Source: Thermoplasmata archaeon (lineage in GTDB: Archaea > Thermoplasmatota > Thermoplasmata > RBG-16-68-12 > JAFNFQ01). From it: a stretch of 64,000 bases of DNA. The position numbers and the translations under genes were made by a program. The stretch is taken from contig JBGPQV010000007.1 in NCBI GenBank assembly GCA_041489255.1, positions 4,006 to 68,005 on the forward strand. Direction: 5' to 3'. The notes beneath the pieces were generated by a model that ran no database searches, had not been told where the DNA came from, and worked only from the letters and a program-made list of their open reading frames with translations. Of the stretch, positions 404-56,362 are shown one piece after another. How positions within the stretch are numbered: position 1 is the stretch's first letter; each line of letters starts with the position of its first letter.

Positions 404-522
404 ATCAACACTTATTAATCCCCTTCCCGCCTACGCCTCTCCAACATGCACCCCTGTCAGCGCATCTACTGCACCAAGAGCGAGAAGCTGAAGGGAAAGA
501 GGATAGTCCTCAGCATCTCAGG
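404..522 (+). repeat. diverged direct duplicate (~88% identity, ~120 bp) of the coaBC upstream region + first ~25 codons; partner copy at 4034..4153
   Basis: manual alignment: atcaacacttattaatcccc...atgcacccctgtcagcgcatctactgcaccaagagcgagaagctgaagggaaagaggatagtcctcagcatc vs 4034-4153. Confidence 0.75.
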
Positions 523-538
523 TTCGCGGAATTATTGA
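446..538 (+). pseudogene. truncated coaBC 5' fragment (MHPCQRIYCTKSEKLKGKRIVLSISGSRNY*), 30 codons then stop
   Basis: translation of the duplicated segment matches CoaBC N-terminus MHPSQRIYCTKSEKLKGKRIVLGITGS then diverges into stop. Confidence 0.6.
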
Positions 539-751
539 CCGGTCAGAGACATTAGTCGCACCATCCTGACACTATTCCTCCGGACATGATAGTCAATATA
601 ACCGGGTAGTCTGCGATTGGGGTGGGGCAGGACTGAAGAAGAAAAATGCTTTGGCGCGGGGGACCTGAAAATGCACAGCGCCATCAGAAATCATTGTCAA
701 TCGCCTGCCCTCCCGAAACATTCGATTCGCACCAGCTTGGTGAGCTGGAGG

Positions 752-3700
752 TCAACCGTTCACAATCCATGTCGCGTCAGCGGGGACGAATATCCAATAA
801 CCTTCACCCGGCTTCATGAGATAGCTGTCCTTGACTCGCTGAAGATAATAAGGCGCAGCGCTCGAATCGAACGCCTCAATGATTACCCCGGTGAGCCCGA
901 TATCAGCCTTGAGGTCTGCAACAGTGCAGGTCGTGTTGAGGGAGGGGAAGCCCACCATGTTCCACCCCTGGCGGAGATCGATCGCGGTCGAGGAGGATTC
1001 TGTGCCGCGGATGGTGAAGTTGCAGGCTGAGGTCACGTCGATCCAGAATCCCATCGTGTTGGTGAGTGCATGGAGGCCGTTGGCATCTCTTCCCGGGACG
1101 TAGGACTTCCAAGGGTTCATGGGATCAAGCGAATCGTACCAGCGTACGTAGTCGTAGCAGCCCGATATCGACGAGAGCACATTTTCGATGGTTACATCGA
1201 CGGCCGACAAGGGGAATGACATGAATCGCTTTCCGGGCGAGAGGGACATCGCAAACGATGAGACAACCTCGGCAGTTATGCAAGCCACATTATTGGTCTC
1301 GTTGGATTCCGCCACGGACCCAGGCGGCGGGTCTGCCCAGGCACATACGCTGTGATTTCCCACGAAGTCAGGTGTCCATGAGAATTGCAGTTCGATCTGC
1401 TGGTAAACGGGCAGACTGCCAGCAGACTTGATTTCGATTATCTCACTCGGGTCTACCTGCCCGTCGAAGTCGTAATCGTCAAAGGACGTTACGGAAAAGT
1501 CAGTGACGTTGGAATCGCCAACATTACTCACATTCACGTACAGAATGATCGATGTTCCGTTGGCAATGGGCGATTGTGGGACGGTATGAAGATCATTCGG
1601 AGAGATCAAGAGATCTGGGAGCTCGATAGGGCCCAGCTTAGCCACGAATCCATCGGTATTAAGATTGTAACTGGTATCGAACGCACTCGGCGTCACCGGG
1701 AAATCGGTAGAGTCTGTCTTGCCAGTGATGTAGACCGCACCTGCGGAGTCAACGGAAGCCGCAAGCCCTACCTCATAAGCGGAGCCCCCAATGAGCGTCG
1801 AATATGACAGGAGTCTCCCCGACTCGCCAAGTTGTATGACAAAAGCATCGCTTGAATTGAGGGTCCTGTCAATGGCATCAGGAGTCGTCGGGAAGTCGGG
1901 TGAAAATGTTCTGCCGGTTAAATAGAGATTCCCTAAAGCGTCCATTACAAGGTCGGAGGGCGATTCAGAGCTATTACCGCCGAGGAATGTTGAGTAGCTT
2001 AGAGTACTCGTATTGATGTCGAGGCGTGATAAGAACATGTCGGAAGTCCCATTCAATGACGCGTCAAGCGCGTCTGCGGTCACCGGAAAATCTGATGAAT
2101 CGGTCAGACCTGTAACGTAGAGAGCATCCGCTGAATCCTCGATCACGTACCCTCCATCTTCCCAGTCTGTACCTCCGATAAAAGTCGAATAGATTAGAGA
2201 AGTGCCTGCATTATTGAGCTTTGCCACGAATACGTCGCTGTAGTTGAAAGTTGTATCAAAGGAACCAGGAGTCACTGGGAAGTCTGCGGACAACGTGAAG
2301 CCTCCGACTACCATCTCACCGCGTTCATTGACGAATATGGAATTCCCCTCATCGCGCATGCTTCCGCCGAGGTACGTAGACGAGAGCAAAGCGTCCCCCG
2401 CATCGCTGAGCTTGAACACGAAGACTTCTTCTCTCCCTTTCGATGTTGAGCTGAACGCCCCGGGAGTTGTAGGGAAATCAGGTGAAAGCGTGGTGCCGCA
2501 AACATAGGTATTCCCACTGGAGTCTAGATACAGGGCATATCCTATGTCATTTGAACTTCCGCCGACGAAGGTGGAGAAGATTAGCCCGCTTCCGCTTGCG
2601 TTCAGTTTGAGCACAAAGGCATCGGACCCATGGTATGTTGTATCATAGGCTCCCGGAGTCACCGGGAAATCGGGAGATTGGGCTTCCCCCGTCACGTATG
2701 CGTTGCCGGAAGTGTCAACACTCAGAGCATAGGCGAACTCTTGGTAGGAACCACCTATGTAGGTTGAGTACGCGAGCGTATCCCCACTAGCGTTAATCTT
2801 CGTCACGAAGATACCGCCATTTCCCCACCATGTGTCAAACGCACCAGGCGTCACAGGAAAGTCAAACGATATTGTATGTCCAGTTACATATGCATTGCCG
2901 GCGCCATCCACATCAATCGCGTACGGTGCATCAGCATTCCAGCCTCCTAGATAGGTAGCGTAGATTAATGGGTCGATGGTTAGGGGCTTGGAGGGATTCC
3001 ATCCGTTGCAGTCGAACCCGTATGACGTTTCGCTTCGGGGAAGGAACTCGCAGTCGATTTCCTCTCCAATATCCTGATAGGAATATGGGGAAGAATCTCG
3101 CACGTCTCCCATGGTGGTCCGAATCGCAATGCCGGATGTTTCGATTCGCATCGATTCGATGCCTTCATAGGCCATATTGATGGATGCGGGATTCGCCCCC
3201 GCGCTGATCCTGAATTCATATTTCACACCGCCAAGAATCGGCTTGTAGATGAGGTCGATGCCATCGTATAGATTCTTATAGATCAACTCGCCGTAGTTCG
3301 GCACATCCGTCCTCCACTTGCTCGTGTCGTTGCCCAAGAAGAAGTTGCTGTTGAAGGGCAGGTGTCTCTCGCCGCTGGGGGCAATCATGTTTGCGCCATC
3401 GAATCGGAGTAAATATGTGACTGAATCGACCGGCTCCTCATTCGAACCAATAGAGGTCCTGAAGTCTGAAGTGCTGTTCCTGGTCCCCATCCCATTCCTC
3501 TCGTAATCATTTGCATCATGCAGAACAAACATCACCCCGTCGTCCATGAAAGCGACTGCGGGATTTCCCATCGCGTAATAGCGGATATTCTCGGCCACCT
3601 GACCCCTGTTCTCGACAAAGTAGTTGTTAAGAGAATCGAAGGCATCGAGGATGACCTGCTTCGTCGCTGTATTGGGAGGACTTGTGTCATTCCATGACGA

Positions 3701-55180: not shown

Positions 55181-55261
55181 CTCTTCCGTGTCTGTTGCAA
55201 TCCTGCACACAGACCGGTCTTGTTCGCGGCGGGAAAGAATCAACAGAGGCTTTCCTCGAAT

Positions 55262-55302
55262 GAAGAGGAAAAGAAAAAAATGCCCCCCTTTTGGCGGGGG
55301 GC
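55262..55302 (-). terminator. GC hairpin + T-tract (minus-strand), candidate pyrF terminator
   Basis: gcccccc-ttttggc-ggggggc stem-loop; minus strand continues attttttttcttttcc. Confidence 0.35.
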
Positions 55303-55714
55303 TTGGGAAACGCGGGTTCGCAACCGCCAATGGACGCTACTTCATCGCTTCCTGGACCGGGACCGGCAGCGGCTCCGCAGCCGTCTGATCCCCCGCCTGC
55401 CTGACCTTGCTCCGGAGGCGCTGGAAGACCTTCGCCGACTCGCTGTTCTTCTCCACCGCCGCCATCATCATGTCGATCGTGCCCGATGTGACGACGTACG
55501 CGCGGTGCATTGTCGTGGGATTCTGTACCTCGCCGCTGTCAAAAGCCGACTACGAGTCAGCCAACGGGTGGATGAGGAATCTTGCGAATGTCGCAGGCAT
55601 TCGTTTCCGAGATGTTGTCTATTTCGAGGGCCAACCATCGGTATTCGACAATGACTCTAGAAACGCTGGGCCACCAGCAAGACGGAATCGTGTGCATAAC
55701 GGAAAGTGGATATC

Positions 55715-56362
55715 CTAAGATCGGAAAGTTACGCGAATGCCTTCAATGACCTGTTCCGCTTCCTTCCTCGGCTCCTTCGCCTCGTATATCGCCCGCCCCA
55801 CGATCACGTAATCCGCCCCTGCTCTGATTGCGTCGGCAGCGCTCCCGCCCTGCGCACCGACTCCAGGCGTCGCGATGCGGAGACTCCCGACAATCTCCCT
55901 CATCCTCCTAATCCTTTCCGGCCTCGTGGCGGGAGCGATGATGCCAGTTGCCCCGACCTTCACCGCCATCCTCGCGATCTCCTCCGCTATCGGCGCGCTG
56001 AACCTCTCAGCCCCGGGGTGGCTCATCTCCGTCACAACGAACACGTCGCCCTTGGCGGCATCCACGCACGCTTTCACCGAGTCCTCGCCTGGGAAGCCGT
56101 GGACGATCACGCCCGATGCCCCGCGGCGGAAAGCCTCCTGCACGATGAGGCGGTTGGTGTTCGGGATGTCGGCGACCTTGAAGTCGCAGAGCACGTCCGA
56201 CTCCTTCGCGAGCTTTGTGATGATTTCGGGTCCGACCCCTAGGATGATCGGCCAGTTGACCTTGATGGCGTCAACGAGGTTTTTCACTTCGCCCGCGATT
56301 TTGAGCGCCCTCTTTTCCTCCACGACATCGAGCGCCAGAATCAGATGAGAGTCGAGCTTCAT
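55715..56362 (-). CDS. pyrF: orotidine 5'-phosphate decarboxylase
   Basis: LALDV…, DFKVADIPNT, catalytic K/D pattern, GVGAQGG phosphate-binding end. Confidence 0.85.
   Translation of the reverse strand: MKLDSHLILALDVVEEKRALKIAGEVKNLVDAIKVNWPIILGVGPEIITKLAKESDVLCDFKVADIPNTNRLIVQEAFRRGASGVIVHGFPGEDSVKACVDAAKGDVFVVTEMSHPGAERFSAPIAEEIARMAVKVGATGIIAPATRPERIRRMREIVGSLRIATPGVGAQGGSAADAIRAGADYVIVGRAIYEAKEPRKEAEQVIEGIRVTFRS

Follow-up and report, generated by a model that had tools for sequence, protein, structure and literature searches.

Diverged copies of housekeeping-gene ends flank small integrase-less inserts at three sites in a Thermoplasmata archaeon

In a 64,000-nt stretch of contig JBGPQV010000007.1 of a Thermoplasmata archaeon (assembly GCA_041489255.1; hereafter the window, numbered from its first letter), the ends of three housekeeping genes are each present twice, on either side of a small insert. 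Sensitive self-BLASTN recovered the three pairs that an earlier note on this DNA had described, that is, the promoter and 5′ end of coaBC, the 3′ end of the pantoate kinase (PoK) gene and the 3′ end of pyrF. The accessory segments of 1-3.5 kb that the duplicates were said to mark proved to be inserts of 3,510, 1,005 and 1,289 nt, with a low GC content of 52.1% (coaBC), 55.0% (PoK) and 58.3% (pyrF) against 62-63% in the flanking core genes; the divergence within pairs, which had been put at ~12-20%, measures 12.5-25%. The cassettes are foreign by composition (52-56% GC versus 62-63%). We hold the best reading to be that integrase-less cassettes are inserted site-specifically by a recombinase that acts in trans, and consider it, with some reserve, probable. 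The duplicates would then be attL/attR-type scars of Campbell-type (circle-into-chromosome) recombination at three hot spots in housekeeping-gene ends, comprising the coaBC promoter and first ~75 nt, the last ~60-130 nt of PoK and the last ~60-115 nt of pyrF.

The same sequence is present in JGI metagenome contig 3300052989/Ga0534152_0000023 (locus L001, where a position equals the window position + 5925), and two contigs of the NCBI metagenome-assembled genome (MAG) GCA_041481165.1 also match the window identically. The JGI and NCBI assemblies are 100% concordant across all junctions, and a Logan contig from a separate run covers window positions 482-4135 exactly. Judged by its coaBC, the organism represents an uncultured lineage with affinity to Thermoplasmata/Methanomassiliicoccales. 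Only one close GTDB species representative exists (GCA_017885655.1, with loci L002 and L089), in which coaBC is 92% identical to that of the window at the amino acid level, all others being at or below 55%. Further relatives were gathered by metagenome and protein-index searches, with the following coaBC amino acid identities to the window:

L098/L182: 98%
L178-L180: 92%
L099: 90%
L100: 84%
L101 and L102: 83%
L185/L186: 73%
L184: 67%

For the pyrF site the relatives were L086-88, L089/90 and L092/93, L089 and L090 being from the genome of L002. Gene-end duplicates are absent from the 79 GTDB loci with coaBC at ≤55% amino acid identity, and likewise from L184. Besides the coaBC, PoK and pyrF pairs, a protein-level scan with every open reading frame (ORF) of ≥100 aa found no gene-end remnant in the window, and ~170 kb of related loci contained no further remnants of other gene ends.

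Cassette arrays on both sides of the coaBC–PoK operon

coaBC and PoK overlap and stand next to each other, so that one operon is bracketed by two of the three sites. The features of this region are:

1..402, plus strand: 3′ part of the 255-aa membrane-protein cassette (ORF end 8-346; full ORF at L001 5504-6271), adjoining the coaBC remnant copy1 on the left
403..522, plus strand, invariant core 456-511: copy1, displaced resident coaBC promoter and first 77 nt, attL-type; 87.5% identical to 4033-4152, promoter arm 100% identical to the functional end of L002
523..4032, minus strand: surface-protein cassette, 3,510 nt, 52% GC, with a gene at 752-3772/3805 for a DUF7948-SBBP-CARDB protein of 1,006/1,017 aa (ORF and Pfam)
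4033..4152, plus strand, core 4086-4141: copy2, functional, cassette-supplied promoter and first 77 nt of coaBC, attR-type; left boundary CATCAACATCTATTAATCC, promoter arm 76% identical to copy1 and L002
4076-5272 and 5262-6134, plus strand: target operon of coaBC (Pfam Flavoprotein and DFP) and PoK (GHMP_kinases_N), kept in 80+ relatives
6048..6134, plus strand, core 6081-6106: functional PoK 3′ end, B type, from the core onward supplied by cassette B
6135..7139, plus strand: cassette B, 1,005 nt, 55% GC, with a membrane-protein gene at 6168/6315-7121
7140..7226, plus strand, core 7173-7198: displaced PoK 3′ end, attR-type mosaic, the left 42 nt corresponding to the cassette-B arm and the right arm to the former resident end

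At the coaBC site, positions 403-522 align with 4033-4152 at 87.5% identity over 120 nt (E=5e-36), a duplicate that comprises a promoter block resembling a TATA box (CATCAACAyyTATTAATCC) and the initial 77 nt of coaBC, and whose remnant copy translates as MHPCQRIYCTKSEKLKGKRIVLSISGSRNY up to a stop. The sister species L002 indicates which copy was there before. In L002 the 255-aa cassette directly abuts functional coaBC, and positions 8912-10072 correspond to L001 5282-6442 (the 255-aa cassette plus copy1) at 98.7% identity over 1,161 nt, compared with 89.5% in the remainder of coaBC-PoK. Because the promoter arm of copy1 is 100% identical (54/54 nt) to the functional arm of L002, and that of the functional window copy only 76%, copy1 is the displaced resident end. 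The surface cassette is not found at the same position in L002, L098 and L102, which represent the coaBC site without this cassette, and the last ~11 nt of copy1 (AGCATCTCAGG) are found only together with it; its junctions were confirmed by an NCBI MAG contig and a Logan contig. Judging from these alignments, the surface cassette arrived together with copy2, bringing a promoter and ~25 codons.

Further gene-end duplicates, which the earlier note had proposed to look for, do exist: two more coaBC-5′ copies were located 1.3 kb and 0.6 kb before the first position of the window, one at L001 4489-4634 (copy0, 93% identical to the functional copy) and a promoter-only copy at L001 5282-5330, directly 5′ of the 255-aa ORF. 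As these two lie outside, the window holds just half of a four-copy array. The order in L001 is IS3 transposase and type II methyltransferase, copy0, 139-aa ORF, promoter-only copy, 255-aa membrane protein, copy1, surface-protein gene, and copy2 as the start of coaBC. The IS3-family transposase (orfA/orfB, rve domain; L001 837-1963) and the type II N6/N4 DNA methyltransferase with a 320-aa ORF (2141-4135) lie between the first coaBC copy and the conserved gene upstream; L002 and L098 lack this segment, and L182 has a methyltransferase at another position.

Across eight genomes we found 13 coaBC-5′ copies, all with the left boundary CATCAACATCTATTAATCC. Between copies the core (+9 to +72) shows 86-100% identity, and the gene bodies differ by up to 18%. 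The right boundaries of the remnants vary (+3, +77, +84, +87, +93, +105 and +116), as does the cargo, which includes the 139-aa ORF (also in L102), a 156-aa ORF, the 255-aa ORF, a 1.1-kb unit in L098 and, in L100, a 4.5-kb unit encoding a permease alongside a surface and a TPR protein; L099, L101 and L178 have a single coaBC-5′ copy. The crossover can be bracketed no more closely than to a block of ≤64 nt. Synonymous differences amount to 0.11 in the core versus 0.21 in the rest of the gene, a weak contrast as it comes from only 21 codons and non-independent pairs. L098, in which the 255-aa cassette has no preceding copy, was considered as a counter-example and dismissed, copy0 having been lost there by deletion at a 9-nt microhomology (GGCTGGCTG).

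The PoK duplicate aligns over 78 nt (6055-6132 versus 7147-7224; 75.6% identity, E=9e-8), corresponding to roughly the last 28 codons, and the remnant at 7140-7226 translates as VAKILATILSGYGQRMKCEVDQRGVRIL up to a stop. Alignment of the copies and their flanks revealed that every PoK 3′-end copy stays linked to its own downstream cargo, giving four types:

Type A: 184/253-aa ORF, minus strand
Type B: 303/317-aa membrane protein
Type C: 212-aa ORF and an AbiEii-like ORF
Type D: conserved 122-aa ORF

The order of the cassettes after PoK differs between genomes:

L099: C
L185: C-D
L002: A-C
L098/L182: A-B-C
L178: B-C-D
Window: B-D

Sites without A or B are thus present in L099 and L185, where PoK stands directly before C. 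A PoK remnant marks each internal cassette boundary, save where it has been lost, with up to three PoK-3′ copies per array. Homologues of cassette B (77-79% nucleotide identity) occur in L098/L182 and L178-L180 and are always preceded by the B-type PoK 3′ end; the right arm of the functional window end and its downstream flank match the functional end of L178 and, in L098, the remnant ahead of cassette B.

When each PoK copy is split into a left arm of 42 nt, a core of 27 nt (TATGGGCAGAGGmTGAAGTGCGArGT) and a right arm of 25 nt, the remnants turn out to be mosaics. The left arm of the window remnant is 74% identical to the post-B remnants in L098 and L178, compared with 55-64% to all others, and its right arm is 76-84% identical to A/D-type ends. 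In the post-B remnants of L098 and L178, the right arm is instead 92% identical to the functional C-type end of L099. The core is 78-100% identical among all copies, and ≥85% except versus the remnant between A and C in L002. Because the mosaic partners share that core alone, at least two separate crossovers can be bracketed to these 27 nt. Such a restriction of crossovers to the PoK core would be a signature of site-specific rather than general recombination.

Some further observations concern surface proteins and the coaBC upstream region. The C-terminal ~135 codons of the cassette surface protein (783-1190) share 65% DNA identity with the C-terminal codons (44418-44825) of the gene for another CARDB protein at 44387-46909, and the same C-terminal module appears to end the surface proteins predicted beside coaBC in L100 and L101. 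An exosortase/archaeosortase-like gene is located at 62617-63543. A giant gene for a DUF7948-SBBP-PKD surface protein (47077-51477) has a T at position 48976, where a G is read in both the JGI and the NCBI assembly of this strain; the T creates a TGA stop that splits the gene into ORFs 46879-48978 and 49012-51477, and the gene is uninterrupted (1,466 or 1,451 aa) in those two assemblies. In the distant Thermoplasmata relative L045, a 29-nt exact repeat of the coaBC upstream region lies ~1 kb off, along with a second match of 49 nt (2359-2387, 4491-4537); this may be a different small repeat element, unconnected to the clade studied here.

An older insertion at the pyrF 3′ end

The third site differs in age. 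Its features are:

54309..54425, minus strand, core 54340-54359: displaced pyrF 3′ end, frameshifted by a 4-nt deletion and contiguous with the native Zip-gene flank
54426..55714, minus strand: pyrF insert, 1,289 nt, 58.3% GC; 84-88% identical to L086 and L092, absent from L089
About 54640-55005: array of ~15-20 units of 21 bp, each with CCAGAC/GTCTGG (6-bp inverted repeat)
55000-55118: 63-bp tandem repeats
55337-55510: 57-aa ORF
55715..55842, minus strand, core 55755-55774: functional pyrF 3′ end, the last 8 codons from a 143-nt insertion

Positions 55734-55842 align with 54319-54423 at 75.2% identity over 109 nt (E=9e-14), covering about 38 codons at the end of pyrF (55715-56362, minus strand). 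The differences between duplicates had been described as mostly conservative, which does not apply here, the remnant being a frameshifted pseudogene fragment. Orthologous remnants with the identical 4-nt deletion are found in L086 and L092 and, since insert, remnant and deletion are common to all three, the insertion predates the divergence of the window, L086 and L092. In L089/L090, pyrF is followed by 55 nt and then the Zip transporter gene, its end being collinear with the remnant and Zip flank of the others, which identifies this site, by alignment, as an unoccupied or precisely excised attB. As L086 is the outgroup by pyrF identity, L089 most likely lost the insert. The pyrF insert is thus old and was largely inherited vertically. 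There are also newer layers, namely a nucleotidyltransferase gene that L092/L093 carry directly after pyrF and the 143-nt insertion in the window.

Within the insert, gains and losses in the 21-bp array among the window, L086 and L092 are multiples of 21 nt and follow no codon-like pattern, and the array looks like an iteron-like or centromere-like run of predicted protein-binding sites. No Rfam family was matched in the insert or the array, the only Rfam match of the window being a tRNA-Gln. L093 and L092 are identical in pyrF and the nucleotidyltransferase cassette and diverge within the 21-bp array (~1.9 kb past the pyrF start codon), beyond which one contig runs into Zip and the other into TBP/TatD genes; L084/L085 end at 55481, and short Logan contigs of the window strain also end inside the insert. 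The break at the array could be either a rearrangement hot spot or an assembly breakpoint. Directly downstream of the 57-aa ORF, at 55273-55301 on the minus strand, a perfect G/C hairpin with a T-run behind it (CCCCCCGCCAAAAGGGGGGCATTTTTTT) looks like a terminator. The 143-nt insertion (55590-55732, relative to L086) is flanked by a 6-nt direct repeat, ATTCGC, and gives pyrF the new C-terminus VTFRS; terminal inverted repeats are not evident on it, and the earlier C-terminus, IRKIPHPPVG, survives as a second short remnant at 55557-55589. Beside pyrF lie two tandem paralogous small GTPase genes (56655-57209 and 57404-57841; Ras/Roc/Arf Pfam families), with 68.5% DNA identity to each other and present in all relatives.

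Insertion mechanism and competing explanations

In total we distinguish ~10 cassettes, 0.5-4.5 kb in size and often single-gene, encoding surface proteins, membrane proteins, toxin-antitoxin-like or nucleotidyltransferase proteins and unknowns. The 255-aa ORF is 99.5% identical between the window and L002, compared with 89-92% for core genes, and between L182 and L178, whose core genes are at 90.4%, a tract of 1,968 nt that runs from the B-type 3′ end through cassette B and the remnant into the start of C is 98.6% identical. These comparisons show that cassettes have moved horizontally between lineages, and recently. Homologous-recombination exchange between strains, which the earlier note had listed as an alternative to insertion, is thereby supported as an additional process (tracts of 98.6-99.5% versus ~90% in core genes).

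We envisage that the incoming unit is a small low-GC circle without integrase, which carries a contiguous copy of the target gene end that acts like attP. Crossover would occur in the short conserved core (27 nt in PoK, ≤64 nt in coaBC, ~20 nt in pyrF), after which the cassette copy would complete the gene and, in the case of coaBC, the gene would also be transcribed from the cassette promoter. The resident end would be pushed outward and then decay, and re-use of the regenerated site would stack cassettes with the newest beside the gene. Recombination between cores could delete or reshuffle cassettes, and ordinary homologous recombination in the flanks would spread them among lineages. The catalyst would be a site-specific recombinase, probably a tyrosine recombinase whose gene lies on a helper element or at another place in the genome, and the intermediate a presumed circle. 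In agreement with this, coaBC, PoK and pyrF are all full-length, the target genes being reconstituted, and functional ends travel with cargo; comparison of the arrays also establishes that remnant boundaries are specific to each cassette and that cassettes stack with the newest beside the gene. Catalysis by a recombinase is suggested by how little homology the partners share, namely the 27-nt core in PoK and, in coaBC, a 120-nt alignment of 87.5% identity in which the longest identical stretch is 35 nt. Of the earlier proposal of integrase-mediated insertion with a replacement gene end, the replacement end and the displaced resident end are borne out by the L002 tract, the PoK copies with their cargo and the unoccupied pyrF site, and the integrase is not.

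Several results weigh against recombinase-mediated insertion. Pfam matches of all JGI-called genes, together with our own Pfam/PADLOC scans of cassette ORFs, revealed no tyrosine or serine recombinase in the window (as the earlier note had said), in the ~10 cassettes or in the surveyed loci of close relatives (~170 kb). There is no Phage_integrase, Resolvase or rve domain among the cassette genes, and the only rve protein is the IS3 transposase at L001 837-1670, outside the arrays. No integrase-bearing helper was found at coaBC (eight genomes), PoK (seven) or pyrF (five), a small sample and therefore weak evidence. The three cores have no motif in common (12 nt with 1 mismatch, 14 with 2 and 16 with 3, in both orientations), so that one recombinase of a single specificity cannot account for all three sites. 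Exact-pattern scans of IMG/VR viral contigs gave 0 matches to the coaBC and PoK cores, and no free or circular form was seen. The arms of cassette A are too close to the clade-typical gene for its crossover to be placed, and much of the present variation could reflect differential loss and homologous exchange rather than new insertions.

Other candidate features were considered as well. A 7-mer, GCTGAAG, common to the coaBC and PoK cores was rejected as a shared motif, its occurrence being within chance. BLAST against PLSDB plasmids gave no match to the pyrF insert (DNA) or to the cassette-B protein. Folding of all six copies as single-stranded DNA gave z-scores of -0.54 to +1.75 relative to shuffled sequences, which led us to reject attC-like folding, and no intI was found within 10 kb on either side of any locus. 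A casposon or IS-type transposon was dismissed because the duplications are 78-165 nt long and diverged, and the cassettes carry neither Cas1 nor a transposase; an inverted-repeat scan of the whole window returned one unrelated pair only.

The main rival is that homologous recombination alone is responsible, a possibility we take seriously although we consider it the less likely one. Repeat-flanked cassettes would pop out as circles in a host RadA-dependent process and re-enter their own or a different genome through one crossover where the gene ends are homologous, with double crossovers in the flanking genes spreading them and no dedicated recombinase being involved. This would fit with the lack of a recombinase near any site and with the fact that three unrelated target sequences behave alike, as well as with remnant boundaries that are variable and cassette-specific (coaBC 77-116 nt; PoK -87, -128 and -164) and with recently exchanged tracts that end in or at the copies. 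Surface-protein genes are moreover native upstream of coaBC in L178, L099 and L101, so that cassettes resemble pieces of the chromosomes of relatives. However, the partners in the latest event, at coaBC, have only the limited identity given above, and those at PoK share the 27-nt core with 0-3 mismatches between arms of 55-64% identity, which is far under the usual need for homology. Homologous recombination alone would also leave unexplained how the first duplication arose at each site and why duplicates are absent from the 79 distant relatives. The same resemblance to chromosomal neighbourhoods of relatives, and the same variability of remnant boundaries, could be accommodated by homology-facilitated illegitimate recombination, in which a linear fragment of a relative's chromosome, anchored in the gene, is joined illegitimately at its other end within the recipient gene end and so leaves a duplicate. 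Microhomology deletion junctions do occur in the region, as in the loss of copy0 in L098 at the 9-nt GGCTGGCTG, and the cassette A remnant in L098 is 98-100% identical to the functional end of L178 in all three segments. We nevertheless find this explanation improbable, given that it predicts wholly recipient-derived remnants, whereas the post-B remnants of three genomes are mosaics with a divergent, cassette-specific left arm, and that an identical cassette-specific boundary recurs before different downstream partners.

Two further explanations have next to nothing left to support them. A chimeric join of co-existing strains through a shared segment, raised in the earlier note, might be suspected since contigs of other assemblies break near the repeats, NCBI contig 16 starting inside coaBC, the Logan contig ending inside the shared 35-nt block and L084/L085 ending at 55481. 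Yet the copies share at most 35 identical bases, which is shorter than the reads and k-mers behind the JGI and NCBI contigs, these two assemblies agree at every junction, and the tandem architecture recurs in independent assemblies from other species and samples (L002, L098/L182, L100, L102, L178-180, L185/186, L086-88 and L092). A chimeric path would in any case still need a remnant beside each cassette in some genome, and assembly chimerism is excluded. A negligible likelihood is likewise all that we accord to the idea that the gene ends were duplicated in tandem on the spot and then diverged, with unrelated insertions arriving later between the copies. Although the copies are direct repeats in cis, the promoter arm of copy1 is identical at 54 of 54 positions to the functional end of another species, in a tract of 98.7%, and is not a diverged paralogue of its neighbour; furthermore, arms reassort between genomes and each copy is tied to particular cargo.

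Relation to known elements and significance

It is established that archaeal att sites can be long, that elements integrate in protein-coding gene ends and that sites are re-used in tandem (PMC6563490; PMC8371274). The closest parallels to the arrangement described here come from ICEs (integrative and conjugative elements) and CIMEs (cis-mobilizable elements) such as ICESt1, ICESt3 and related CIMEs at the 3′ end of fda in Streptococcus thermophilus (PMC5704250), where, as in our arrays, att-flanked units lack integration genes of their own and accretion proceeds by successive site-specific events that leave the target gene intact. The present cassettes resemble CIMEs in being att-flanked and in lacking integration and transfer genes; in contrast to the fda system, however, no cognate integrase-bearing ICE or integrative and mobilizable element was found at any of the three sites, and the units are much smaller. 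The host is moreover an archaeon of the Thermoplasmata, two hot spots bracket one operon, and at one of them a promoter and 5′ end are replaced. Replacement of a 5′ end has its own precedents. SXT/R391 ICEs insert in the 5′ end of prfC (PMC5812530), where tandem arrays are known, and pTN3-type archaeal integrases use the 5′ half of a tRNA gene as attB, the recombinant gene being expressed from the element promoter (PMC8371274). As at coaBC, the 5′ end of an essential gene is targeted and the element provides a new 5′ end and promoter, but these elements are large and encode an integrase, whereas the units here measure 0.5-4.5 kb, have no recombinase and target an archaeal protein-coding gene.

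Among archaeal elements, those of Thaumarchaeota (PMC6563490) similarly occupy the 3′ ends of housekeeping genes, which are rebuilt with a changed C-terminus and stop codon; comparison of relatives verified both empty and occupied sites, and sites are re-used in tandem. They are, however, complex elements of 2.6-140 kb that normally encode an integrase, their att sites are short (median 17 bp, compared with duplicated segments of 78-165 nt here), and replacement of a 5′ end or promoter is not described there. The tycheposon islands of Prochlorococcus (bioRxiv 10.1101/2020.12.28.424599) share repeated integration at one site with newcomers pushing older material outward, partial target-gene copies between units, niche and defence cargo and integrase-less leftovers; they differ in that they use seven tRNA-gene targets and include 937 integrase-carrying elements, whereas we find protein-coding gene ends and have seen no integrase-carrying element. 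As in integrons, small and often single-gene cassettes accumulate at one site beside a fixed gene with the newest nearest, and the coaBC repeats carry a promoter. Unlike in integrons, there is no intI, and the repeats are gene-end copies without hairpin potential rather than attC sites. Neither an element-encoded integrase nor either of these two integron hallmarks was found. The system is best described as operating in the manner of site-specific accretion, with cassettes that lack an integrase, and it belongs to no named family.

One could go further and suppose that the clade runs an integron-like cassette platform without attC or a linked integrase, in which cores in essential-gene ends serve as permanent docking sites, and minimal gene-end-tagged cassettes with genes of surface, membrane or defence type undergo capture, stacking, expression from the duplicated coaBC promoter, excision and exchange between species. 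The catalyst would be a recombinase, chromosomal or helper-borne, that is guided by gene-end homology and not by one fixed sequence; the pTN3 integrase, for which homology-dependent activity has been reported, is a comparable case. We put this forward tentatively, as an extension that in its full form is rather unlikely.

These results bear on the question of how flexible islands, often made up of surface-protein or defence genes, are formed in uncultured archaea without obvious mobile elements. The locus offers a concrete and testable case, with docking cores of 20-64 nt, known cassette boundaries, occupied and empty alleles in relatives and recent interspecies transfer (98.6-99.5%). For annotators, short pseudo-'ORFs' derived from gene-end remnants are to be expected, such as the 38-40-aa calls beside coaBC and PoK. 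If a trans-acting recombinase were found, this would be a cassette system anchored in essential genes yet keeping them intact, and its cores would be possible landing pads for genetics in the clade. If no recombinase exists, the arrays would instead reflect archaeal homologous recombination acting on ~30 nt of identity in nature.

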